This document shows positions 1,136-32,000 of a DNA stretch of 32,000 nt, in pieces. Numbering within the stretch: position 1 is the stretch's first letter; every line of letters begins with the position of its first letter. This stretch comes from Candidatus Electrothrix sp. GW3-4. GTDB lineage: Bacteria > Desulfobacterota > Desulfobulbia > Desulfobulbales > Desulfobulbaceae. Location: the NCBI RefSeq assembly GCF_037902255.1, contig NZ_CP147990.1, positions 1,710,001 to 1,742,000 on the forward strand. Reading direction: 5' to 3'. The notes below the pieces were generated by a model, which saw only the letters and a list, made by a program, of their open reading frames with translations, had not been told where the DNA came from and ran no database searches. Both the position numbers and the translations under genes were made by a program.

Positions 1136-1320
1136 AGTTTCGTAAGAAACTTGTTTTAGAGCAGGTTTAACATATATCCTTTCTGGTCAGAGCAGAACCA
1201 GAAAGTTGCAAAAGCCACAGCCGTCGTGAGGCGGTGTCGGAAAGCTACGGATCTCCAGGAGGAGACCGCCGGGTTGCCTGCTTTCACTTAACGCTCTATT
1301 GTAAAACCAGGAGGAATGTT

Positions 1321-3173: not shown

Positions 3174-6086
3174 ATGATTATGAAATCAGGAAAAAAGAAG
3201 GGAATGGCATTCCTGCGTCGTTTGATCATATCTGTTATCTTATTGTTTTATATTCTTCCGGCTACTGTCCAAGCAAATACAGCCAGCCCGCATATTGTCC
3301 ATGAAAATCAGCCTGACGGAACAGAAATAGCACTTCGCATCAAAGGGAGCGAAGCGCTTCGTTGGCAGGAAGATCTTGACGGATTCACAGTGCTTCGTAC
3401 AAAATCAGGGCATTATGTCTATGCAAGACGGGGAGTAAATGGGCGCTTGGTGCCTACGGAACACAAGGTTGGCAAGGCCAACCCGAAGGCCCTGGGCCTG
3501 AAGCGCCGGGAGTTACCCTCCCCAGCTGTCAGGGCGATAATGCGTGCTGATAGCCCAGCAGCCCTGACCTCTGATGAAACAACACAGACAACTCTTCAGC
3601 AAACAACGATACCGCAGGTCTTGAATAATCTCGTTGTGCTGATCAGGTTCAGTGACCATACTGATCGCGCTGTTCCGGCAGAATCTGATATCGATGTGCT
3701 GATGAATGCGATTGGCGGGGATCCTGATCTGGCTCCTGCTGGCAGCCTGCGGGATATTTACCTGAACAACTCCTACGGGGCCCTGACCATTGACTCTACA
3801 GTCGTAGCCTGGGCCACTGTCTCTCACACGGAGGCATATTATGCCGACGGGGCATCCGGTCTGGTCACCAAGGTTCATGAGGCCCTTGGCGAGGCCCTGG
3901 ATATTGTCGACGAGGTTGTCGATTTCAGCAGTTTTGACCAGGATCATGATGGCTATATTGACGCCATCACCTTCCTCCATTCAGGTTATGGTGCCGAATG
4001 GGGTGGAACTGATGCCTACGGAGCCTATTATACAGACCGTATCTGGTCGCATAAATGGGCCATTTCCGGCTCCTGGCTCTCAGCTGAGGGGGTGCGGGTC
4101 TATGACTACCATATCAGTCCGGCACTTTGGGGGACATCAGGCAGCACTATCGGGCGTATCGGCGTAATTGCGCATGAGACAGGACATTTTCTCGGTCTTC
4201 CTGATTTATATGATACCGACACTTCCGGGGGGGATGGAATCGGTTCCTGGGGCCTGATGGCCAACTCCTGGGGCGGTGACGGTAGTCAGCAGCCCCCACC
4301 CCTGATGTCTGCCTGGAGTAAGATGCAGTTAGGCTGGCTGACTCCGACAGACCTCTCTGCCTCGGGATATTATTCTCAGGAAAACTCGCTGGCCTCTGAT
4401 CTGGTCTATAGGGTGACCGATGGTTTTCCCTTGGATGAGTATCTCCTGATTGAGAATCGCAGGAGAAGAGATGCCAGTAATGCGCTGGTGGACAATATTC
4501 CGATCTCTGGAGACGGACTGGTTGTTTATCATGTCGATGATGCTGCCGGGTATAATACAGAGGGGTATCCGGGACAGCCTGGGTGGCCGGAAAACGGGAA
4601 CCATTATCGGGTGGCGGTGCTTCAGGCCGATGGTAACTATAATCTGGAAAAGGGCGATAACCGGGGCGACAGTGGTGATGCGTACCGTTCAGGTGCAGTC
4701 CTCGGTCCGGCAACCACACCAAATACCGACGCCTATCAGGATGGTGTTATTTCCCCGACAGACCATGAGTTCTCAGAATTCAGCGGGGCCGGGGCAAGTA
4801 TGAATTTTGCGTTCAACATTAATCAAATTCCATCTGATCCGCCCACAGCACCCACTGACCTGACGGCAACAGCCGTTTCAGCAGCTCAGATTGATCTGAG
4901 CTGGACTGTTGGCGCGCGTGCTGAAACCCAGGAGGTATTACGCAGTGCTGATGCGGTATCGTTTACCCCTGTTGCCACCCTGGGACCAGAGGTCAATGTC
5001 TATGCAGATAGTGGTCTTGCCGCCGCAACCACGTATACGTATCAGATTCGTGCCGTAAACAGCAGCGGGTCAGCGGTCTCGGCAAGTGCAGCAGCTGTCA
5101 CCATGGATATCTCCCCGCAGGCCTATGCCATAGATGAAAACACCGTGTCCGGGACCCTTATCGGTTCGTATCCAGATACATATGCGGAAGACGGGACAAC
5201 AGAGCAGCTGACTGAAATCCTCGCTGGAAACGCAAAGAACGGGCGTTCCTTGCTGGACCATAGCTGGCAGATAGGACCGGTTGCAGGGGGTGCTCCAATT
5301 ATACTGACTGTTGCAGCCTGGACGGATTCCGCCCTTGAGGGCTTCACCTTTTCCTGCTCAGTTGACAACGGTATTACCTATACTGATGTGCTGACGGTCG
5401 ATCAGACGACACCGCAACAGCAGATGGTCGAATTCCTGGCAGGGGCAAGTGATACGGTTTATCTGCGGGTGACGGATACAGATAATTCCAGAGGTGAAAC
5501 AGCGCTTGATTCCCTCTTGGTTGATTATATTATGATCGAATCTTTGGGTGAGGTGGTCTTGGTCCCCCCGACAAACCTGAGCGGTTCAGCTCTTTCCTCA
5601 TCAGAGATTGCCCTGTCCTGGAATGACGTTATCGGAGAAAGCGGCTATATCGTAGAATACCGTGAAAACGGGACAACAGGATGGCAGCTGGCAATCGCTG
5701 ATCTGGCCGCAGACAGTACCGGGTACACAGTGAACGGCCTGACATCAGGCACGGCCTATGATTTCCTGGTCTCCTCTTTTGATGAGACAAGCCAGACGGC
5801 CAGCGTGCAGACAGTGGAACCGATTACGACCCTGGAGGAAGGAGTGATCGATGTCGTTACAATCGTTACGGCAGAGTATAAGGTGACCCCTCGGCAACTG
5901 TTGGTTGAAGCGATCAGTACGCAGCAGCCGCAGGCTGTTCTGACACTTGTTGGATTTGGTGAGATGACCTACAGTGCTGCTGATGGAAAATATCTGTATC
6001 AGAACAAGACAGACGATCCAGGGGCAACCCTCACTGTCATATCTGACCTTGGTGGGAGCAGTACCACCGTTGTTGTGCAAAAATAA
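3174..6086 (+). CDS. secreted M6-family (immune inhibitor A-like) zinc metalloprotease with two fibronectin type III domains
   Basis: GGGAGGG lies directly upstream. The start is ATG 3174 or ATG 3180 (MKSGKKK). There is a signal peptide with a hydrophobic core ending VQA. HETGHFLGLPDLYD is the HExxH motif in M6-domain context. Two FN3-like segments are present (PPTAPTDLTATAVSAAQIDLSW... and PPTNLSGSALSSSEIALSW...YIVEYRENG...). Confidence 0.85.
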   Translation: MIMKSGKKKGMAFLRRLIISVILLFYILPATVQANTASPHIVHENQPDGTEIALRIKGSEALRWQEDLDGFTVLRTKSGHYVYARRGVNGRLVPTEHKVGKANPKALGLKRRELPSPAVRAIMRADSPAALTSDETTQTTLQQTTIPQVLNNLVVLIRFSDHTDRAVPAESDIDVLMNAIGGDPDLAPAGSLRDIYLNNSYGALTIDSTVVAWATVSHTEAYYADGASGLVTKVHEALGEALDIVDEVVDFSSFDQDHDGYIDAITFLHSGYGAEWGGTDAYGAYYTDRIWSHKWAISGSWLSAEGVRVYDYHISPALWGTSGSTIGRIGVIAHETGHFLGLPDLYDTDTSGGDGIGSWGLMANSWGGDGSQQPPPLMSAWSKMQLGWLTPTDLSASGYYSQENSLASDLVYRVTDGFPLDEYLLIENRRRRDASNALVDNIPISGDGLVVYHVDDAAGYNTEGYPGQPGWPENGNHYRVAVLQADGNYNLEKGDNRGDSGDAYRSGAVLGPATTPNTDAYQDGVISPTDHEFSEFSGAGASMNFAFNINQIPSDPPTAPTDLTATAVSAAQIDLSWTVGARAETQEVLRSADAVSFTPVATLGPEVNVYADSGLAAATTYTYQIRAVNSSGSAVSASAAAVTMDISPQAYAIDENTVSGTLIGSYPDTYAEDGTTEQLTEILAGNAKNGRSLLDHSWQIGPVAGGAPIILTVAAWTDSALEGFTFSCSVDNGITYTDVLTVDQTTPQQQMVEFLAGASDTVYLRVTDTDNSRGETALDSLLVDYIMIESLGEVVLVPPTNLSGSALSSSEIALSWNDVIGESGYIVEYRENGTTGWQLAIADLAADSTGYTVNGLTSGTAYDFLVSSFDETSQTASVQTVEPITTLEEGVIDVVTIVTAEYKVTPRQLLVEAISTQQPQAVLTLVGFGEMTYSAADGKYLYQNKTDDPGATLTVISDLGGSSTTVVVQK

Positions 6087-9268: not shown

Positions 9269-9384
9269 GAAGAGGGGAAGGGGGATAACGGTTTGCGGAT
9301 CATATCTCTGGCTAGAAATTTTCTATCTAGCGATTTGATTCGCTTACCATGCAAATCTCAATAAAAGGGAGGGATGATCTCGTC

Positions 9385-12760: not shown

Positions 12761-12782
12761 ACCTAATGTTTATCAAACACCA

Positions 12783-12802
12783 GGGCGAACCAGGGTTCGC
12801 CC
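12783..12802 (+). terminator. GC hairpin after the DUF2892 gene (weak terminator candidate)
   Basis: GGGCGAAC-CAGG-GTTCGCCC is a perfect 8-bp stem, but no U-tract follows (TCTCCCTTCC). Confidence 0.35.
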
Positions 12803-12865
12803 TCTCCCTTCCAAAATGCTCTTGCTCTTTGATACTCTGCTACCCATTCTACCCCCTTGCAATAG

Positions 12866-18205: not shown

Positions 18206-18282
18206 GCCGATATAGCTCAGCTTGGTAGAGCGGCTGATTCGTAATCAGTAGGTCTCCGGTTCAAGTCCGGATATCGGCTCCA
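18206..18282 (+). tRNA. tRNA-Thr (anticodon CGT), CCA encoded
   Basis: Hand-folded cloverleaf: acceptor GCCGATA/TATCGGC, D arm GCTC/GAGC, anticodon arm GCTGA-TTCGTAA-TCAGT, T arm TCCGG-TTCAAGT-CCGGA, discriminator T, then CCA. Confidence 0.9.
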
Positions 18283-18488: not shown

Positions 18489-20347
18489 GGCATGCTTCAT
18501 ATCCACCCAAAAGTAGTTGACACTTTTTTTTAATACAATGCGGCGAAGACGCACCAATACATATCACCGCTGTCACTTTCTCAGAGTTGATTAACGGCTT
18601 CTTAACTGAAGATCAGGAACCGTTGATGTATAATTTCAGGCCGCTGCCGAGAAAAATAGAGGGTCTTTTTCCTCAATCAGGTCAAATAGCAGCTCAGTCC
18701 AGTCTTTTTCCTGCTTTTTACCCGTCAAAATCTCCATCGGTGTTTTCTTGACTCGTTTTCCCGCACGGTATCGCCTGTTATTATGATAAAATGCGATCAG
18801 ATTCAAGGTGTTCTGGTTCACCTGTCCCCGTGAGGTATTCAGATACGGACGAATGACGGAGTTGATACATTCGACCATGGCCGAACTCTGTACAATTGTG
18901 TCCAACTCGTTGTATACACGATCTTTGATAATTTCAAAATCTTCCTGAAGATACCCTACGGCGAATTCAAGATGCCTCTGTTCTCTGTCCGCGCATCTCT
19001 TACGGCGATCCGCCTTTTTTGCTTTGATCACTGCTTTATGATGCTGCCATGCCGAACAGAGCGACGACAGCGCGTTATGATTGATCGGCAATTTTTCGAG
19101 TTCTTCCCTGACCTCGAGGGCTACAACGAAATAATTCAGAAGATTCGGCAGGATATTTTTTATTCCGTCGATTGCTTTGTTGATTTTTTCATTGCCGAGA
19201 GTTTCAATCATCTCAAGAGCTGCCTGAATGTTGCCTTCCGCCTGCTGACGATTCCGCAGTTGGCCGTCGCAGCAGAACGGGTTCAATTCATTGATAATAC
19301 ATCGGTATAGATAAAAAAAGTTATCATACAGCGCCACGGCCTTCCGCGCTTCGCTGCGTGCTTTTTCATAGAGTTCGGTTCGTTTGCGGATAACCGCCTT
19401 CGTTCGTGCAGAAGCAATTTTTCCTTCGCGGTTATACTCCTCCGTAATAGCTTTATAAGCCGATTTTTCTAGTTGTTCCAACCGACTTCCGAGACGATAT
19501 GCAACAGCGTGAAAAGTGTCTGGCTGCCTCATGATGACACCTGAAAAAAGTTCATCGTGAGCCGCGCACAGCCCGGATCCTTCATCGGTGACGAGATAAA
19601 TCGCCTCAATTCCATTATTTTCAAGGCAGATCCAATGCTTTTTCCATTCTTCAGCACGTCGTTTTTCGGCGAGTTCTATCTTTAAAATCGCGGAGCTGAT
19701 CGGATCGACAGTGATTAGAATAGGTACACCGCCGGAAAAGATTTCATCGCTCAGAAAGACAACCCGCAAATCATTGTCTTCAAGCCTCAGCTCAGGGGGA
19801 ACAAGCGAGCCTATATGATTTAAATATGTGCTAACAGTACCTTGAGATGAGAAGCGTAGGCCGATGCGGTTCATTATCGCCACAATAGATCCGATACCGC
19901 ATTTCCCCTCAAGTCGTAATGAAGCTATCATTTCAACAGCTTCTCTTTTGTTTTCAGTATCGGCAGGTTGAACGGGCGGTCCGAGCGCAAGTTCAACAAT
20001 TTCCTCGAAAACCGCCAAGGTGTCATAGATAAACGTCCTGGAAACATTGTAATATTTCGATAATGCGGTTACCGTGCCCCATAGACCGAAAATTTTAGCG
20101 CAATACGCTTCATAAACGATTTGTAGTCGATCGAAAGTTGCTAACTCAGGGCGACGAAGAAATTTATTTCCGAAAATATTGCTCGCGTTATCGGGGACGG
20201 GCACTTGAGGTACGAGAGAAAACATAAGGCGATGTTGGTTCAATTTGGCTGAGGATTATTTGCCATTATAATAGCTGAACCAAGCAGCTTGTCGCAACTT
20301 TATGAATAACTTTCTGTACAAGTGTCAACCCGGATATGAAGGATGCC
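18489..20347 (-). mobile_element. complete insertion sequence (1859 bp), family unassigned
   Basis: The terminal inverted repeats are GGCATGCTTCATATCC...GTTGACACTT (18489-18525, with a 7-8 nt internal insertion) and the reverse complement of 20319-20347 (GGCATCCTTCATATCCGGGTTGACACTTG). The 8-bp direct repeat TCATTTGT flanks them at 18481-18488 and 20348-20355. There is a single transposase ORF, and the element is more AT-rich than its flanks. GG ends, an 8-bp duplication and the size are ISL3-like, but I cannot assign the protein to a family. Confidence 0.85.
18636..20243 (-). CDS. IS transposase (DDE-type, inferred)
   Basis: This 535-aa ORF fills the IS. It has an N-terminal HTH-like region and candidate acidic catalytic contexts FLSDEIF, LVTDEGSG and MVECINSVIRP. 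The TTG at 20243 or the ATG at 20225 could be the start. Confidence 0.75.
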   Translation of the reverse strand: MNQHRLMFSLVPQVPVPDNASNIFGNKFLRRPELATFDRLQIVYEAYCAKIFGLWGTVTALSKYYNVSRTFIYDTLAVFEEIVELALGPPVQPADTENKREAVEMIASLRLEGKCGIGSIVAIMNRIGLRFSSQGTVSTYLNHIGSLVPPELRLEDNDLRVVFLSDEIFSGGVPILITVDPISSAILKIELAEKRRAEEWKKHWICLENNGIEAIYLVTDEGSGLCAAHDELFSGVIMRQPDTFHAVAYRLGSRLEQLEKSAYKAITEEYNREGKIASARTKAVIRKRTELYEKARSEARKAVALYDNFFYLYRCIINELNPFCCDGQLRNRQQAEGNIQAALEMIETLGNEKINKAIDGIKNILPNLLNYFVVALEVREELEKLPINHNALSSLCSAWQHHKAVIKAKKADRRKRCADREQRHLEFAVGYLQEDFEIIKDRVYNELDTIVQSSAMVECINSVIRPYLNTSRGQVNQNTLNLIAFYHNNRRYRAGKRVKKTPMEILTGKKQEKDWTELLFDLIEEKDPLFFSAAA

Positions 20348-20426: not shown

Positions 20427-21047
20427 ATGCGAAAAACGATATCACTCCTCCTTATCCTTTCCGGTTGTATCGAAGTGGTCACGAGCATTTTTTTGTACAT
20501 GGCCCCCATGGGTCGTATTGCCTACTGGCATGATTATCAATTATTAGGGATGGACAGGGCCCAATGGCGTGATATCCATATCACGGTGGGGACCCTGTTT
20601 CTTCTGGTTGCATTCATTCATATCTATCTGAACTGGCGTCCCATGCTTGCGTACCTGAAAAATAAGTCCAAGCAGCTGACGGTCTTTAATATCCATTTCA
20701 ATGTAGCCCTGCTTATTTCCCTCTACTTTATGGTCGGTACCCTCTATTCCCTCCCGCCAATGGGACAGATTATTCAATTCGGCAAGTACTTGACTGTGCA
20801 GGCCAATAAGAGGTACAGCGAGCCTCCTTTCCATCATGCAGAACGGGCGAGCTTGCAGGAGTTCTGCACAGAAATGGAGATCAGCCAAGAGCCAGTTGTT
20901 GCCCTGCTCAAGGGGGCTGGTCTTGTCGTAGATGGCGTTGATAAGACAATAGGAGAAGTCGCGAAAAAGAATAGCTGTTCACCGCAACAGCTCTACGAGC
21001 TTATCAAACCTATTATTCCGACGGGGAAAAAAGGTGGGCATGATTGA
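20427..21047 (+). CDS. small membrane protein, tentatively DUF4405-like
   Basis: Hydrophobic helices carry conserved-looking His residues (WRDIHITVGTLFLLVAFIHIYLNW). The N-terminus LLILSGC also fits a lipobox. The SD is weak. The stop codon abuts the decayed terminal CRISPR repeat. Confidence 0.5.
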   Translation: MRKTISLLLILSGCIEVVTSIFLYMAPMGRIAYWHDYQLLGMDRAQWRDIHITVGTLFLLVAFIHIYLNWRPMLAYLKNKSKQLTVFNIHFNVALLISLYFMVGTLYSLPPMGQIIQFGKYLTVQANKRYSEPPFHHAERASLQEFCTEMEISQEPVVALLKGAGLVVDGVDKTIGEVAKKNSCSPQQLYELIKPIIPTGKKGGHD

Positions 21048-22985
21048 ATAGATGTCACCCCCGCATGGGGGGCGACAAAAATGATTTTTGACGTATCAGA
21101 TAATAACCTTGTTTCAATCCACGCCCCCGCATGGGGGGCGACTCAGCTACATACTGAGCATAGGCAACTTCTATAGGTTTCAATCCACGCCCCCGCATGG
21201 GGGGCGACAGGGCAGTACCTGAAAAATCCAGCCGCTTACGGTGTTTCAATCCACGCCCCCGCATGGGGGGCGACGCCGGACTTACACCGGTCACTCTCTT
21301 CTTGCCCGGTTTCAATCCACGCCCCCGCATGGGGGGCGACTAAGTTTAACCATCTTGAGAATTCTTCTCTTTTGTTTCAATCCACGCCCCCGCATGGGGG
21401 GCGACCCACGCCTTAACCTCTTGCGTTATATTATCGTTTGTTTCAATCCACGCCCCCGCATGGGGGCGACAAGGTCCAAGAGATCACCCTCAAGCAGGCC
21501 CAGGTTTCAATCCACGCCCCCGCATGGGGGGCGACCAACCAAGCCATCAAAAACATGTAGTGATTGCATGTTTCAATCCACGCCCCCGCATGGGGGGCGA
21601 CGCGTATTCGGCTGCGGAAGCAGGTTTCCACAACCGGTTTCAATCCACGCCCCCGCATGGGGGGCGACGAGCGGTAAACCACGTCTCAGCACTCATCAAT
21701 TGTTTCAATCCACGCCCCCGCATGGGGGGCGACTGGCGGGGCGTTTAGGTTGGTCGCCGCCGAAGCTGAGTTTCAATCCACGCCCCCGCATGGGGGCGAC
21801 GCCTCCCCTGACAACGTGGTACACCGAATGATCTTGTTTCAATCCACGCCCCCGCATGGGGGCGACGAGAATGTTCCTCACCCTCACAAAATTCATATTT
21901 TTGTTTCAATCCACGCCCCCGCATGGGGGGCGACCAATAATATCACCCTCTCCAAGAGAGATTAGGCGTGTTTCAATCCACGCCCCCGCATGGGGGGCGA
22001 CGCACTGATTAAGGGTATCAGGTTAGCGGGCACAGTTTCAATCCACGCCCCCGCATGGGGGGCGACCTGTTTCCTTTGCTACCAACCGCCACTTTCGGCG
22101 TTTCAATCCACGCCCCCGCATGGGGGGCGACGCAGATACTCTTTTTCCGTGCCTGTGTATTGCTCTGTTTCAATCCACGCCCCCGCATGGGGGCGACCTT
22201 TGTGTTTTTGGGCTTTCTTCATAGCCTGCCCGTTTCAATCCACGCCCCCGCATGGGGGGCGACAAGTCCAAGACATTTCATAATGTCTTTGATGTTTGGT
22301 TTCAATCCACGCCCCCGCATGGGGGGCGACAGGTACCGATATTGGTGGTGGTTGGTCTAAATATGTTTCAATCCACGCCCCCGCATGGGGGGCGACATTC
22401 ACTTCTAGTTTATTCTCTGGATTTGGAATGTTTCAATCCACGCCCCCGCATGGGGGGCGACACGGTTTAAGTCAAGATCGGTTTCGAGTATGGACGTTTC
22501 AATCCACGCCCCCGCATGGGGGGCGACGGGAAAATATTGTTTACCAGGATGTAAACGGAAGGTTTCAATCCACGCCCCCGCATGGGGGGCGACGGGCTGC
22601 CCAAGATGGTCGGGGCGTAAAATTATCTGTTTCAATCCACGCCCCCGCATGGGGGGCGACGTAGAACCAAATGTACTGAGGATAAGATTGCATGTTTCAA
22701 TCCACGCCCCCGCATGGGGGCGACGGACTGCCCCGGCCAGTCATCACGCTGGCACCTGTTTCAATCCACGCCCCCGCATGGGGGGCGACAGACGGCCTGA
22801 CGGTTGATACACTCGTTTTGCCGGGTTTCAATCCACGCCCCCGCATGGGGGCGACCTCTGCCCCAGAAAAAGTTGTTGAGGGGGAGGGTTTCAATCCACG
22901 CCCCCGCATGGGGGGCGACATACCTACTGCCAGACTCTGATACCTTGCCGCCAGTTTCAATCCACGCCCCCGCATGGGGGGCGAC
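21047..22985 (-). CRISPR. type I-C CRISPR array: 29 intact repeats, 1 decayed terminal repeat, 29 unique spacers (32-36 nt)
   Basis: The plus-strand repeat is GTTTCAATCCACGCCCCCGCATGGGGGGCGAC (32 nt). Its reverse complement GTCGCCCCCCATGCGGGGGCGTGGATTGAAAC ends in ATTGAAAC, as in I-C repeats, so transcription runs on the minus strand from the cas2-proximal leader. The first repeat is at 22954-22985. The trailer repeat at 21047-21076 keeps only CCCCCGCATGGGGGGCGAC. Confidence 0.97.
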
Positions 22986-23369
22986 TGTCAAGCTGTAACA
23001 TACTGTTACCGCTTGACGAATTACTGCATTTGCGCGAACCGCATTTTTCGGACGCGGTCGCAAAGAACAAAAAGCGTTCTTTTTAATAAAAACCTCCTGA
23101 TTTCAATATGTGCGAACCTCCCGTGTTTTTCTGTCTGTTAGAGGTTCGCGCAAGCGTTTTCGGGGAATTCCGTTGATTCGATCCACCTGTCATACTACTT
23201 TCTTCCGATGTCGTCAATCGGACAAGATCGGACAAACACAGGCAACTCTGTCGAGGGAGTGTCGGGAGAGCTGAAAGCCGCATTTCCGCACCCGGAGTTG
23301 AAACACCGGGCTATTAGCGGCAGTCCCTCCGGGACACTGTTTCCCGGAAGCCCCGCCCCGGAGGGGCGA
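22986..23369 (-). promoter_or_regulatory. CRISPR leader region (between the cas2 terminator and repeat 1)
   Basis: This call rests on its position between cas2 and the first repeat. It has an AT-rich core (23060-23100) and several inverted repeats. I could not define a promoter confidently. Confidence 0.6.
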
Positions 23370-23399
23370 TTGAAAATAGCCCACCGTTTTAACGGTGGG
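23370..23399 (-). terminator. candidate intrinsic terminator of the cas operon
   Basis: On the minus strand, CCCACCG-TTAAAA-CGGTGGG (23380-23399) is followed by CTATTTTCAAT. It begins 8 nt after the cas2 stop. Confidence 0.55.
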
Positions 23400-23406
23400 G
23401 AGCAGT

Positions 23407-23697
23407 TCAGACTATCAGCGTACCCTCCTGGTCAATGGCTTCCTTGGCCCCGATATGTTCGACCCGGTGTTTCCAGTTGGAGCCGAGGAAATAGAAACGG
23501 AGGCTGTCCACTTCTTTATCTATTTCTTTGATAAGCCGCTCCCGCATGACCACCCATTTATCCGGTGGCACAATGCACTCAAACACCGAATATTGCACCC
23601 GCTGACCATAATCGCGACAGACCTTGGCCACCCGGCGCAGGCGTTTGGGTCCGGTTTTATCGCTTGTTTTTACGTCGTAACTCACCAGGACAAACAT
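23407..23697 (-). CDS. cas2: CRISPR-associated endoribonuclease Cas2
   Basis: MFVLVSYDVKTSDKTGPKRLRRVAKVCRDYGQRVQYSVFEC is the canonical Cas2 N-terminus. The protein is 96 aa, and GGAGGGAGAT precedes the ATG. Confidence 0.95.
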   Translation of the reverse strand: MFVLVSYDVKTSDKTGPKRLRRVAKVCRDYGQRVQYSVFECIVPPDKWVVMRERLIKEIDKEVDSLRFYFLGSNWKHRVEHIGAKEAIDQEGTLIV

Positions 23698-23728
23698 ATC
23701 TCCCTCCTTGTACTTTCATGCTATGTTG

Positions 23729-23750
23729 TCCCTCCCCAGAGGGGGAGGGA
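23729..23750. other. perfect 9-bp GC hairpin in the cas1-cas2 gap
   Basis: TCCCTCCCC-AGAG-GGGGAGGGA. On the plus strand it is followed by TGG GCGTT ATTTGAAAG (23751-23767). Confidence 0.8.
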
Positions 23751-23846
23751 TGGGCGTTATTTGAAAGTGGTCGGCAAAGACCAGCCAGGCTTCACCCCCT
23801 TCATGCTTTGTTGTTTCGCCCCGCCAGGAGAGAGGGGGTAAAAAAG

Positions 23847-24875
23847 TTAATGCCAGATCACTGGTGGATAGCCGTCCAGATCCCCCCGAAGAAAACGGGC
23901 CAGCAACAGGGCCTGGGTATGAAAAAATAGGCCAAGGGGCATCTTCTCTTCCAAAAAGGGATGCTGAAGCACATCCTGCTTTCGCTCCTGATAGGTGGTC
24001 AGCAGGGTCTTGCGGGCCTTGTCTTTCATTCGCACCCCGCCGCTTGCGCTGACAACAAAATCCTTGGCCTGCAACTGGCCCCGGTTGATTAGAGATAGGG
24101 CTATACGATCGGCCATAGGGCGGAATTCCTCCATCATATCCAGGGCCAGTCCGGATCGTCCTGGTCGGTCCCGATGAAGAAAGCCCACTGCCGGATCAAG
24201 GCCGGTGCATTCCAGGGCGGAACGCACATCGTGCATAACCAGGGTATAGAGAAAGGAGAGCAGGCAGTTGACCAGGTCCAGGGGTGGTCTCCTGCTGCGC
24301 TGACGAAAGAAAAAGTCCTCTTTATGATGTATGATGAGATGATCAAAGGCAGAAAAATAGATATGGGCCGCATCTCCTTCTGTGCCGCGCACCTTATCCA
24401 GGGGCAGGTCCCGGCCCAGAGATTTGAGCAGGCCAGTAAGGTGATTCACCGCCTTGTTCATCGCATTGGTGTCTATTTTGTCCGCGTGATCACGCAACGT
24501 CCGGTTCAGGAGATAGCGACAGTTGGCGACCTTACCGTTGATAAAGGCCCTGGCCATCAGCGCCGAAAATGTCGGATCATCGGCCCGACGATACTGCTCC
24601 CGCCGCAGGAGGACATTGCCGGAAACCGGCCCCTGCACCCGTGCCAGAAAGCGCCCGTGTTCGGTCAGAAAACTGATTGTCACATCCCGTTCCGCACAAA
24701 ATCCCAGGAGAAACGGGCTGCATCCCACATTGCCAAAGCAGACAACCCCATTCAGGGTATGGACAGGCAGGCGCAGCCGGACCTTTTTTTCCACCCGGAC
24801 AGCCACGGTCTCGCCTTCCTTGGCCAGATAGGCCCCCTGGGTGGTGACAAAGAGCGTATTGAGATGTTTTTTCAT
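23847..24875 (-). CDS. cas1: CRISPR-associated integrase Cas1 (I-C type)
   Basis: The start is ATG 24875 (MKKHLNTLFVTTQGAYLAKEGETV), which overlaps the cas4 stop in an ATGA junction. The track ORF running to 25151 is an upstream extension. The protein is 343 aa. Confidence 0.95.
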   Translation of the reverse strand: MKKHLNTLFVTTQGAYLAKEGETVAVRVEKKVRLRLPVHTLNGVVCFGNVGCSPFLLGFCAERDVTISFLTEHGRFLARVQGPVSGNVLLRREQYRRADDPTFSALMARAFINGKVANCRYLLNRTLRDHADKIDTNAMNKAVNHLTGLLKSLGRDLPLDKVRGTEGDAAHIYFSAFDHLIIHHKEDFFFRQRSRRPPLDLVNCLLSFLYTLVMHDVRSALECTGLDPAVGFLHRDRPGRSGLALDMMEEFRPMADRIALSLINRGQLQAKDFVVSASGGVRMKDKARKTLLTTYQERKQDVLQHPFLEEKMPLGLFFHTQALLLARFLRGDLDGYPPVIWH

Positions 24876-25504
24876 GATTCTGTCATCCTGGTCAGATAGT
24901 TTCGCACCTGCCCCTTTTTTCCTACAGCAGCCTTGGGCAGGCAGGTATCGATAAAAGAACAACTTTCGCAACGACGATTGTACTGGGGGGGTGGGGTAGT
25001 GGTGCCGGAGAGGAGTTCGTGCAGACGGGCAGTAGTCTCCTCCGTGACCTTGCGCAGGCGATCGTTGATCTGTACCGCTGTCCGTCGTTTTTTCTGGCCG
25101 TAATAGAGCGCACCTTCCGGGATCGTGCAGTCCAGCATCTCTTCCAGACACAGGGCCTGGGCGCAGAGCTGGACCTGGTCTGTATCATCCTTTTTCGGGC
25201 GGCCCCGTTTATACTCCACTGGAAAGGGCTGCCAAAAGCCGTCTTCCTGCGGATGCATCTCTACGATATCCGCCCTGCCGGAGAGCCCCAGGCGCAGGGA
25301 GCGGATGGGCATATCGTACTCCACCCGGACCGTGCTGCGGGAATCACTGGCTGCGCTATGGACCCGCTCGTGCAGGACCCGGCCTTCAGCAGTGAAGCGG
25401 TTTTCTGTCCATGCCTGCTCCAGATGAATCAGGGCGCATTGGCGCGGACAGAAGAGGAGATGCTGGAGCGCGGAGAGCATGAGGAGGTCGTCTTCGGAAT
25501 ACAT
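24872..25504 (-). CDS. cas4: CRISPR-associated exonuclease Cas4 (RecB-like, Fe-S cluster)
   Basis: GGAGGA sits 7 nt before ATG 25504 (MYSEDDLLMLSALQHLLFCPRQCAL). There is an N-terminal Cys and a C-terminal CESCSFIDTC cluster. Confidence 0.9.
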   Translation of the reverse strand: MYSEDDLLMLSALQHLLFCPRQCALIHLEQAWTENRFTAEGRVLHERVHSAASDSRSTVRVEYDMPIRSLRLGLSGRADIVEMHPQEDGFWQPFPVEYKRGRPKKDDTDQVQLCAQALCLEEMLDCTIPEGALYYGQKKRRTAVQINDRLRKVTEETTARLHELLSGTTTPPPQYNRRCESCSFIDTCLPKAAVGKKGQVRNYLTRMTES

Positions 25505-25618
25505 GGTGTTTCCTCCGGGGCGTTGGTGCCCAAACATGGTCAGGCGTATTGGTCTGATATCGCGCAGCCGGGTGCGCAGGGCTGCGCTGAGGGTAGGGGG
25601 CTTCTTTCGATAAATTGC

Positions 25619-26499
25619 TTACAAGCGTTCCTGCAAGGTCACCCCGTTGGGAACGTTTTTCGTATCAATACTCACTTCGTAATCGCTGAATTTTCGCGGC
25701 GGTTTTGAGGTGTCTGAACGGTTGATCGTGACCAATTCAAAAAGCTTATGGGCCGGGGCATTACCCAGTTCGCTGTCGTGTTTAAAGACAATGAGCCTTT
25801 GCGCCGCCATTTCACCACGGGCCGCAGAGCGGTCATGATCGAACATGTTGATCAGTGCATCCCAGAGTAGTTGCAGGTCGTCCTCAGAGAAACCGGTGTT
25901 TCCGGCCAGCGGTGCGGAAACATAGCCGTGGGCCCGATAGAGGCCGTAAGGGATATAGGTTTTCCGGCCCATTGTCCGATTGCCGCTGTCTTTGCCTTCT
26001 TTGGCCTGCGCTGCTGCTTCTTTTTCCGTCTCAACAGCCATTCGGGTGATGCTGGCCTCCAACGGGACAACCGGATCAATGCTCTCAGCAAAATTGAACT
26101 GCACCGGCCCGCGTACTTGGCCGCAGTTATTTTTCGTTGTGGACATCACCGCACCGAAGGTCCGTACGTCAAAGAAGTTGGCGCACATCCAGTCGCGGGC
26201 TTTGCTCACCTTATCTTTCTTTTCCTCTTTGACAGCTTCATAAGCTGGGGTTCTGCGCTCGGCAAGCACCGCCCTTTCCTGGATATAGATATTATAGTTC
26301 TTTTGGTACCGTTCCTCTCTTTCACTGAGTATTTCCACAAAATTACGGACTTTGCGTTTCAGGCATACATCCGTGACAATACCGTGACTGGTTTCCGGGT
26401 CAATGCGTGGCAGGTTACCGGAGTCCGGGTCTCCGTTGGGATTGCCGTTTTTGACATCAAAAAGGTACACGAATTCATAGCGGTTCTGAATATGCTCAC

Positions 26500-26503
<4 letters not shown>
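25619..26503 (-). CDS. cas7: type I-C Cascade backbone subunit Cas7c (Csd2)
   Basis: [49 protein letters not shown] is the characteristic Csd2 N-terminus. Its ATG overlaps the cas8c stop (ATGA). Confidence 0.92.
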
Positions 26504-31089
<4,586 letters not shown>

Positions 31090-31319
31090 AGAATTGTGGG
31101 AGGAGGTTGAGAGGAGTGGATAATAAGTAAGAAATGCAAAGAAATGTAATTTATATAAATACAACCATCGGGAAATATTGCAAGATATTTTTATTCTCCC
31201 AAGAGGAGAACGACCCGATGCGCGAATAGCACTTTTGAGTGTGCGGAATATCCTTTCTCCTGAGAGGATGGCATGTTAGTTTCACGACCTGAAATCCATA
31301 TTGTTGAAAGTGAAAAACT

Positions 31320-32000
31320 ATGCTTGAAAATCTCCCTGTTCATAAGATCCTGCCTCAGCTTAAAGAGACGTTAACCCAGCAGGGCAGGGCCGTCCTGATG
31401 GCTCCGCCTGGTTCCGGCAAGACCACCCTGGTCCCCTTAGCCCTGAAAGACGCACCCTGGCTCAAGGGGAAAAAATCCTCCTCCTCGAACCCCGGAGGAT
31501 TGCGGCCCGGCTGGCAGCGGAGTATATGAGCAAGCTTTGCCAGGAAAAGGTCGGGGATACTGTGGGCTATCAGATCCGCTTTGACCGTCGAATCTCGGCC
31601 CGAACCAAGGTGGAAGTGGTCACTGAGGGGATTCTCTGTCGCCGTCTCCAGCAGGATCCTGAGCTGAGTGATATTGGCCTGATCATCTTTGATGAGTTTC
31701 ATGAGCGCAGCCTCAACTCGGACCTGGCCTTTACCCTCTGCCTGGACGTGCTTTCCGGCCTGCGGGAAGATCTCCGTCTCCTGGTTATGTCCGCCACAAT
31801 GGATACAGAGGCGGTGAGTCGTTTGCTGGATAATGCTCCGATCATTAACGGGCAGGGAAGGGTGTTTCCGGTGCGTACAGAGGCTCTCCCCCCTTTGCCC
31901 CAGTTTGCCACTAATCGGCCTGGTCATCTGGCCCGGAGTACAGGACGGGCAATTCTTCAGGTACTTGGCCAGGAGCAGGGGGATCTCCTGGTTTTCCTGC
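31320..32000 (+). pseudogene. hrpB: ATP-dependent RNA helicase HrpB, 5' part (runs off the window), with an apparent 1-nt frameshift
   Basis: LPVHKILPQLKETLTQQGRAVLMAPPGSGKTTLVPLAL is the HrpB N-terminus and P-loop. The frame breaks at the A6 run 31470-31475. With A7 it reads GKKILLLEPRRIAARLAAEYMSKLCQEKVGDTVGYQIRFD...IIFDEFHERS...LLVMSATMD. Confidence 0.8.

Follow-up and report, generated by a model that had tools for sequence, protein, structure and literature searches.

The 149-nt gap between cas1 and cas2 of the type I-C CRISPR-Cas locus studied here is a real but ordinary feature: it is a strain-specific structured intercistronic spacer, and it is not a crRNA-like gene. We tentatively believe, at somewhat less than even confidence, that the gap is a lineage-specific, self-folding non-coding insert at an insertion-prone junction and that it gates the translation of cas2. 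This cis-acting translational gate is the favoured reading because the predicted fold of the gap RNA masks the Shine-Dalgarno sequence (SD) of cas2, and its effect would most likely be a modest adjustment of Cas2 translation. A neutral fossil is nearly as likely. Among the four roles that the original prediction had proposed for the gap, an mRNA hairpin affecting cas2 expression and a fossil remain, and a CreA/CreR-like RNA gene and an internal promoter have been given up.

In the window (the whole stretch of DNA that was analysed, 32 kb), NCBIfam models identify a complete type I-C locus, encoded on the minus strand (Table 1). Gene calls on the identical Logan contig bear out the ATGA-type 4-nt overlaps described earlier for cas5c/cas8c, cas8c/cas7 and cas4/cas1, and an in-frame TGA at 23715-23717 excludes a longer cas2 N-terminus. 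In crRNA sense the repeat reads GTCGCCCCCCATGCGGGGGCGTGGATTGAAAC (minus strand), and the spacers of the array are 33-36 nt long. The nearest kin of the locus are cable bacteria: Cas1 is 91% identical to that of Candidatus Electrothrix marina, and Cas2 is 93% identical to the representative of an Electrothrix Cas2 cluster. In the nearest other loci, the identity of Cas1 is 87-91%, and that of Cas2 is 88% in the metagenome scan and 93-95% among the Electrothrix genomes; the gap sequence was absent from all of these loci in both the genome and the metagenome scans. By exact-protein look-up, Cas1 was found on the Logan contigs L161 and L162, which come from the same strain only, and no record was returned for Cas2. 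The Logan contigs SRR28154588 and SRR28154589 equal the window except at one base, and both terminate within the gap hairpin; since the same-strain contigs stop there, the Cas1 look-up yields no variation data.

Table 1. Features of the type I-C locus and of its cas1-cas2 gap, in positions of the window
Feature	Positions	Strand	Details
cas3	30238-31164 and 28877-30286	minus	two overlapping ORFs; NCBIfam
cas5c	28212-28913	minus	NCBIfam
cas8c	26500-28239	minus	NCBIfam
cas7	25619-26503	minus	NCBIfam
cas4	24872-25537	minus	NCBIfam
cas1 (type I-C Cas1c)	23847-24875	minus	stop TAA 23847-23849; NCBIfam TIGR03640, 506 bits
cas1-cas2 intercistronic spacer	23698-23846	minus	149 nt; MFE -57.9 kcal/mol, z about -2.5
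CU tract CUCUCUCCU (predicted anti-SD)	23826-23834	minus	13-21 nt past the cas1 stop
Weak second hairpin	23816-23839		CCCC/GGGG arms, long loop; about -8 kcal/mol alone
Direct-repeat copy B	23800-23822		plus strand TTCATGCTTTGTTGTTTCGCCCC; cas-sense GGGGCGAAACAACAAAGCATGAA
57-nt imperfect palindrome	23712-23768		7-bp outer stem ACTTTCA/TGAAAGT and perfect inner hairpin, separated by an internal loop; MFE structure
Perfect 9-bp hairpin TCCCTCCCC-AGAG-GGGGAGGGA	23729-23750		
Direct-repeat copy A	23715-23737		plus strand TTCATGCTATGTTGTCCCTCCCC
cas2 SD AGGAGGGAG	23700-23708	minus	inside CAAGGAGGGA
cas2	23407-23697	minus	ATG 23695-23697; NCBIfam TIGR01573, 70.7 bits
Leader			396 nt, after cas2
CRISPR array	21045-23010		about 30 repeats

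Every string and coordinate that the original prediction gave for the gap was correct on re-check, including TCGCCCC at 23816-23822. Two tandem copies of a single module, a C-run/G-run hairpin with ACAACAWAGCATGAA behind it, make up the gap and have diverged from each other. In the copy proximal to cas2, the perfect 9-bp stem sits within the 57-nt palindrome, and this hairpin reaches -18.7 kcal/mol on the cas-sense strand and -20.1 kcal/mol on the plus strand when folded alone. The weak second hairpin includes TCGCCCC and overlaps the CU tract. The perfect hairpin is above chance (p approximately 0.006, estimated as 149 positions x 10 loop sizes / 4^9), and only about five comparable hairpins occur in the whole 32 kb. 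The duplicated 15-mer was also confirmed (23715-23729 and 23800-23814, 14/15 identical). The duplication grows to 23 nt with 19/23 identical (83%) at a spacing of 85 nt, and the score of this direct repeat was matched by 1 of 500 shuffles (p approximately 0.002). The whole gap folds more stably than its shuffles in either orientation, with a z of about -2.5 for the cas-sense strand and -2.0 for the plus strand.

Several further readings of these elements were tried and dropped. A tandem segmental duplication taking in the 3' end of cas1 was rejected, as the similarity is confined to the 23 nt. The small ORFs starting from the ATG inside each 15-mer (15 and 20 codons) were not considered genes, because the SD-like sequence is at least 11 nt off and stem-locked and the peptides are unrelated. 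The 11-mers common to the gap and two array spacers (21733-21743 and 22878-22888) are at chance level (E 0.86). Rfam gave no match to the gap at gathering thresholds and only noise at E up to 10. The 15-mer was not found in the viral-contig scan. The stem sequence of the hairpin was present in 27 unrelated viral contigs, and since its flanks there are unrelated, there is no mobile-element origin to report.

The duplication of the 15-mer above chance, at a spacing of 85 bp that is close to eight helical turns, would suit an internal promoter or regulator-binding region, in which the ACAACAWAGCATGAA copies would serve as operators or a promoter would drive cas2 and the array. Against this, prediction over both strands of 23000-24100 gave no sigma-70-like promoter, the 15-mer lacks dyad symmetry and, within 3 mismatches, has no third copy save one chance-level match, and the element is not conserved among relatives. 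We consider this role, one of those suggested originally, to be highly improbable. The lack of a promoter-like site in 23000-24100 fits co-transcription of the gap, which is presumably transcribed within a cas4-cas1-cas2 mRNA. Both hairpins lack a trailing U-run on the cas-sense strand; transcription termination is therefore unlikely, and the perfect hairpin is not an intrinsic terminator there. Its stem is trailed by CAACAUAGCAUG on this strand and by only a weak GCGTTATTTG tail on the plus strand.

The length of the gap had been called unusual, and this is true of I-C loci generally but not of the genus. Across 155 related I-C loci, the median distance between cas1 and cas2 is 11 nt, and 9-12 nt is normal; longer gaps are found in 30 loci at 40 nt or more and in 13 loci at 100 nt or more. 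In the nine other Electrothrix loci (L001-L003 and L163-L168, which cover E. marina, E. aestuarii, E. rattekaaiensis and MAGs), however, all nine gaps measure 99-132 nt. These nine gaps are made of two related palindromes that lie in inverted orientation to each other, GGGGCAGGcccCTGTGCCTGCCC and GGGCGAACACAGGGGTTCGCCCC. The window and its congeners have only the SD block CAAGGAGGGA in common, of which L167 carries an identical copy (p 0.007). Over its distal 114 nt, the gap could not be aligned with the congeners (p 0.2-0.4); homology of this part to the palindrome pair was rejected on the same values, and a 'GACAAYCA' resemblance in the MAFFT alignment lacks statistical support. BLASTN found no homologue of the gap among 168 related loci. 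The nine congeneric loci thus hold a gap at this place without the conserved hairpin or tail, which is the outcome that the original prediction itself had named as refuting its repeat-like unit. The junction holds many unrelated inserts in relatives and is therefore insertion-prone; cas1 and cas2 of I-C loci flank a hot spot of insertion. The long inserts found there are strongly structured (z of -3 to -9), and the window lies at -2.6.

The contents of this junction in other lineages are diverse. Inverted-repeat-flanked (MITE-like) elements are present in L037, in L047 and in L069 and its relatives, a GIY-YIG gene in L080 (Pfam, 47.7 bits), a YafQ toxin gene directly upstream of cas2 in L081 (Pfam, 115.8 bits) and an 84-nt tandem repeat in L013. 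Solitary repeats on the sense strand, 14-24 nt upstream of cas2, were found in L008, L009, L013, L018, L130 and L034, that is in 6 of 38 long gaps against 0.18 expected, and there were none in antisense at 2 mismatches or fewer. The four that were scanned with a covariance model (L018, L008, L130 and L034) reached 11-34 bits with GGATTGAAAC kept; L009 and L013, outside the model scan, keep the tail at 1-2 mismatches and have local alignment scores of 22 and 12, respectively. No PAM-flanked targets were found for these sense-strand solitary repeats, and a guide function was not retained for them. Repeats at the cas1-cas2 junction were not described in the literature searched.

The original prediction read the gap as a repeat-like/spacer-like/repeat-like unit on the strand opposite to cas. 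According to this explanation, a degenerate crRNA-like gene on the plus strand (CreR, crlRNA or a solitary repeat unit) would yield a hairpin plus AUUUGAAAG that is processed by Cas5c, and the next 48 nt would guide Cascade to a partially matching promoter. Studies have shown that such regulators do occur in I-C loci, where they lie between cas3 and cas5c and have a PAM-flanked promoter target (10.1101/2024.12.27.630466; 10.1101/2023.03.10.532045). On the plus strand of the gap, GTC-stem-TGG ... ATTTGAAAG equals the repeat at 24/32 positions when three insertions are allowed, and at 12/15 without gaps. A simple local alignment on the plus strand (score 12, p approximately 0.01) was the sole positive repeat signal, and its null was made of mononucleotide shuffles, in which the hairpin is not preserved.

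The other comparisons with the repeat gave no significant similarity. A covariance model was made from 32 distinct I-C repeats of related loci with the 7-bp stem annotated. With the filters off, a search of 23011-32000 at E up to 10 left the gap without any match. On 171 nt, the best scores were 1.5 bits on the plus strand and 1.0 bit on the minus strand, at E above 1 and with only the stem covered, whereas the real degenerate repeats at the cas1-cas2 junction that served as positive controls gave 33.5 (L018), 31.3 (L008), 20.2 (L130) and 11.1 bits (L034). BLASTN with the parameters of Shmakov et al. found 12/15 matches on the plus strand (GGGCGTTATTTGAAA, 23752-23766, E 0.32 in a gap-only search) and 11/16 on the minus strand (E 1.4 in a gap-only search), both under the permissive threshold of at least 16 matching nt for repeat-like sequence (Shmakov et al. 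PMC10120712). The best match of the weak second hairpin to the repeat was 11/16. Elsewhere in the locus, a palindrome in the leader (23339-23375) clears this 16-match threshold on both strands.

The handle is also displaced. In crRNA-like RNAs of I-C systems, an 11-nt 5' handle follows directly after the hairpin, and Cas5c cuts at the 3' base of the stem (10.1101/2024.12.27.630466). In the gap, the handle-like ATTTGAAAG ends 17 nt past the stem on the plus strand instead of the expected 11, which is a shift of about 6 nt; the handle-like string of the cas-sense strand ends 16 nt past the stem, and the handle-like strings end in G, not C. TGAAAGT (23762-23768) and ACTTTCA (23712-23718) form an inverted repeat around the hairpin, and TGAAAG therefore follows the hairpin on both strands, with the tails TTTGAAAG on the plus strand and CATGAAAG on the cas-sense strand. 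Both repeat-like "tails" belong to a single imperfect palindrome of 57 nt, in which each forms one arm, and this is the simpler explanation.

For a crRNA-like function, the PAM-proximal part of the spacer should be complementary to a promoter over 10 nt or more, with a TTC PAM for I-C. Three candidate spacers were considered, one after TTTGAAAG on the plus strand and one behind each of the two GCATGAA(A)G strings of the cas-sense strand, and none of them had a TTC-flanked seed match within the 32-kb window. The best candidate target, TTGTCGGCAAAG (28288-28299), lies inside cas5c approximately 50 nt upstream of cas8c and matches at 11/12 positions, but its PAM position is ATC rather than TTC, seed position 2 is mismatched, and chance alone would give about 0.1-1 such matches over the trials made. 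The gap has 7 exact 9-mers in common with other parts of the cas region, against 9.6 expected from shuffles. The 'spacer' would be 48 nt long, in contrast to the 33-36 nt of the array, and the unit has no promoter-like site and is not kept in the congeners. All four testable defining features of a crRNA-like gene failed, and the lack of repeat similarity, the displaced handle, the missing promoter and conservation and the absence of a target from the 32-kb window speak against the CreA/CreR-like RNA gene that had been suggested. We regard a degenerate plus-strand gene of this kind as very unlikely. A real I-C crRNA-like example lies in L018 at 5081-5175, immediately upstream of cas5c, and nothing comparable is present in the window.

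The hairpin might instead be a decayed solitary repeat in the cas sense, at which Cas5c would bind or cleave the cas mRNA and control the cas2 transcript. True sense repeats stand in the same place in the 6 long gaps mentioned above, and the hairpin plus GCATGAAAG ends exactly 15 nt before the cas2 ATG, like the repeats of L009 and L013. On the other hand, the minus-strand scores are only 1.0 bit with the covariance model and 11/16 with BLASTN, the tail matches at 7/10 at best with a 6-nt insertion, and no such repeat exists in the closest relatives (Electrothrix, Cas2 93-95% identical). The outer stem of the palindrome already accounts for the tail, and we consider a decayed repeat improbable. 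The same low standing is given to the idea that the hairpin and tail are an extremely degenerate repeat mimic recognised by Cas5c or Cascade on the cas mRNA or on an antisense transcript, which we doubt. If it were true, the element would be a decayed relation of the genuine sense repeats found 14-24 nt upstream of cas2 in at least six other I-C loci, and the effectors would cut or cover the cas2 mRNA at its 5' end and so link the supply of Cas2 to the level of free Cascade subunits.

The reading that we prefer, a translational gate on cas2, comes from the predicted fold of the cas-sense RNA. The gap is predicted to fold as a closed multibranch domain in which the SD AGGAGGGAG (23708-23700) pairs with the CU tract CUCUCUCCU (23834-23826) across about 120 nt, and the final cas1 codons (CACCAG...GGCAU) are predicted to pair with the first cas2 codons (AUGU...CUGGUG). 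The probability of the SD/anti-SD pairing was 0.66-1.0 in four sequence contexts; it stood at 0.98-1.0 when the flanks were short and at 0.66-0.72 when 240-310 nt of context were included. When the SD region was fixed and the remainder was dinucleotide-shuffled, only 1 of 200 shuffles equalled or exceeded this sequestering; owing to the C/U-rich composition of the gap, the pairing of the SD is already high in the shuffle background (mean 0.73). GGAGGGA, the core of the real SD, also occurs in the 3' arm of the perfect hairpin, so the 5' arm is a second potential anti-SD.

We propose that the gap RNA would close into one domain, with the CU tract paired to the cas2 SD and the cistron ends paired to each other, and that the translation of cas2 would be held down by the masked ribosome-binding site. 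Release would occur mainly when ribosomes completing cas1 open the closing helices. Such a gate would restore the cas1-to-cas2 coupling that is given elsewhere by gaps of 9-12 nt, and a gate that stays unopened would simply reduce the output of Cas2. Thus, we infer both a translational effect and a coupling to cas1 termination from the modelled structure. In the original prediction, one option was an mRNA processing or stability hairpin that uncouples cas2 from cas1; a cis-acting mRNA structure is indeed favoured, but the fold suggests sequestering of the ribosome-binding site over simple uncoupling.

Several points weaken the translational gate. The gap sequence is unique to the strain and comparative support is absent; in the congeners there is no equivalent long-range pairing, and their SDs pair locally with UCCU in cas2 codons 3-4. 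Shuffled gaps already pair the SD 73% of the time. A ribosome halted on a stop codon covers only about 9 nt downstream, and the anti-SD starts at +13, just outside the reach of the terminating ribosome, so its direct unwinding is not guaranteed. The idea that the fold draws the cas1 stop and the cas2 start unusually near was dropped: when exterior-loop distances were compared with shuffles for the window and for other long gaps, the distance was not below that of the shuffles, and the end-to-end compaction of the gap is no better than theirs.

The neutral fossil, which we regard as possible but not probable, holds that the gap has no function and is what decay has left of palindromic DNA (REP- or MITE-like) that was once inserted or duplicated at a tolerant junction. 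The SD pairing would then be a by-product of the C/U-rich composition or of the terminal inverted repeats, in which CTCCCTCCTTG (23700-23710) corresponds at 9/11 positions to the reverse complement of CCAGGAGAGAG (23824-23834). The presence of these terminal repeats is consistent with such an origin, as are the confinement of the content to one strain, unlike all nine congeners, the unrelated inserts gathered at the junction, the degenerate second copy of the module and the generic nature of the stem, a stable hairpin that also occurs in unrelated phage contigs. However, the perfect inner stem and the symmetric outer stem imply that the structure is recent or maintained, the sequestering of the SD is above that of 99.5% of shuffles, and neither a further copy in the 32-kb window or the 168 related loci nor a target-site duplication was seen.

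These results bear on how such elements are called. C-run/G-run hairpins near I-C arrays mimic the repeat stem on both strands, and mini-CRISPR calls need a model-based score, a PAM-flanked target and conservation. The genuine cas-sense solitary repeats upstream of cas2 in relatives are a better entry to effector control of the adaptation genes; their presence in six loci hints that the cas2 mRNA may be a substrate of the effector machinery in some lineages.

The window element can be compared with four kinds of known systems. Like the I-C CreR and crlRNA regulators, it lies in an intergenic gap of the cas operon and has a C-run/G-run hairpin resembling the repeat stem, and its string ATTTGAAAG resembles the 5' handle ATTGAAAC. 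Unlike them, its similarity to the repeat is below every tested threshold, its handle does not adjoin the stem, it has no TTC-flanked partial target in the 32-kb window, no conservation and no promoter-like site on the proposed strand, and it is placed between cas1 and cas2 instead of between cas3 and cas5c. It shares the junction and the distance to the cas2 start (14-24 nt) with the true solitary repeats of relatives, but it scores approximately 1 bit where the four scanned ones score 11-34 bits.

Among palindromic elements, the E. coli REP between malE and malF modulates mRNA stability. As in REP/BIME and MITE palindromes, the gap contains tandem GC-rich imperfect palindromes in an intercistronic position; the congeners carry an inverted palindrome pair at the exact junction, and other loci carry inverted-repeat-flanked elements there. 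In contrast to REP and MITE elements, the window element is present in one copy in 32 kb and in none of the related loci, its two units are direct and not inverted, and there is no target-site duplication. Long-range sequestering of an SD is known from the coat-replicase interaction of MS2 and from the E. coli infC-rpmI-rplT operon. In the gap, unlike in these cases, the anti-SD is 13-21 nt past the stop and not in a translated region, and its opening by ribosomes is uncertain. As in both of them, a pyrimidine tract where the upstream cistron ends is predicted to pair with the downstream SD over about 120 nt, and the ends of the two cistrons are predicted to pair with each other.

In this study, true CRISPR repeats in cas-sense orientation, ending 14-24 nt 5' of the cas2 start codon, were found in six of the related type I-C loci. 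Such repeats were present in 6 of the 38 long cas1-cas2 gaps against 0.18 expected, and the number of antisense repeats in the same 38 gaps was 0. At least four lineages were represented, namely Electronema, Desulfosudis oleivorans and two uncultured groups. A search for PAM-flanked targets gave none. One possibility is that Cas5c processes or binds the cas2 message at these repeats.

In the cas1-cas2 gaps of all other Electrothrix loci (L001-L003, L163-L168), an inverted palindrome pair, GGGGCAGGcccCTGTGCCTGCCC / GGGCGAACACAGGGGTTCGCCCC, was conserved. The same stem (AGGGCGAACC/GGTTCGCCCT) recurred in a palindrome of the window, located in an unrelated intergenic region (12782-12803). The cas7-cas4 junction of the window was also long and contained GC-rich palindromes (CAGCGCAGCCCTGCGCACCCGGCTGCGCG). 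Locus L041 had a hairpin, CCCTCCCC...GGGGAGGG (9357-9379), in a comparable location on the upstream side of cas1.

L161 and L162, the two Logan assemblies built from short reads of the window's strain, both ended within the perfect hairpin of the window's cas1-cas2 gap (approximately 23729-23745), and the assembly was evidently disrupted by the stem. Therefore, loci with such hairpins are expected to be truncated frequently in metagenome assemblies. The contig L161 was otherwise identical to the window except for one base in the G-run of the cas3 Walker A codons, which was G5 in the window and G6 in L161; cas3 was intact in L161, and the difference left two overlapping ORFs in its place in the window. 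Either a sequencing error in the homopolymer or a real frameshift accounts for this difference.

Immediately 3' of the cas2 stop, the CRISPR leader of the window contained a match to the Acido-Lenti-1 RNA, which consisted of the cas2 terminator-like hairpin CCCACCGTT/AACGGTGGG and the palindrome CGCCCCTCCGGGGCG (23339-23375). The two strands of this palindrome had 17 and 19 matches to the repeat, both above the 16-match threshold of repeat-likeness (PMC10120712). We believe that this leader element is probably "unit 1" of the original prediction. E. aestuarii had a second Acido-Lenti-1 match, at L164:652-697, which lay on the opposite strand and upstream of cas4.

Inserted genes were found at or beside the adaptation module in L081, L080 and L163-L165. 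In the fetched flanks of L163, L165 and L164, PIN/PhdYeFM or Fic genes lay upstream of cas4 instead of effector cas genes. Judged by eye, L082 resembled L081, where a YafQ toxin gene directly precedes cas2.

Features located in the window and in related I-C loci
Feature	Location	Strand	Remark
c-di-GMP-I riboswitch	window 1204-1281	+	50.7 bits
tRNA gene	window 18206-18279	+	69 bits
535-aa ORF downstream of array	window 18636-20243	-	weak ISL3 transposase match (19.7 bits, below cutoff 23)
Acido-Lenti-1 RNA	window 23354-23399	-	Rfam match, 46.3 bits; gathering score 37
cas7-cas4 junction	window 25505-25618	-	114 nt (gene calls on L161)
cas3 G-run (CCGGTGGGGG-AAAACG)	window 30309-30313	-	window vs L161
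Cas-sense repeat near cas2	L018:11072-11103
Cas-sense repeat near cas2	L008:2145-2176
Cas-sense repeat near cas2	L130:1148-1174
Cas-sense repeat near cas2	L034:11054-11070
Cas-sense repeat near cas2	L009 gap positions 135-164
Cas-sense repeat near cas2	L013 gap positions 426-453
YafQ toxin gene	L081:254-520		directly upstream of cas2
GIY-YIG gene	L080:11099-11416		between cas1 and cas2
Two-repeat mini-array	L018:5081-5175		repeats 22.8 and 13.3 bits, spacing 61 nt

The mini-array of L018 is a clear example of a unit directly adjoining cas5c on the upstream side, and this is the same position, just upstream of cas5c, as that described for I-C crRNA-like regulators.
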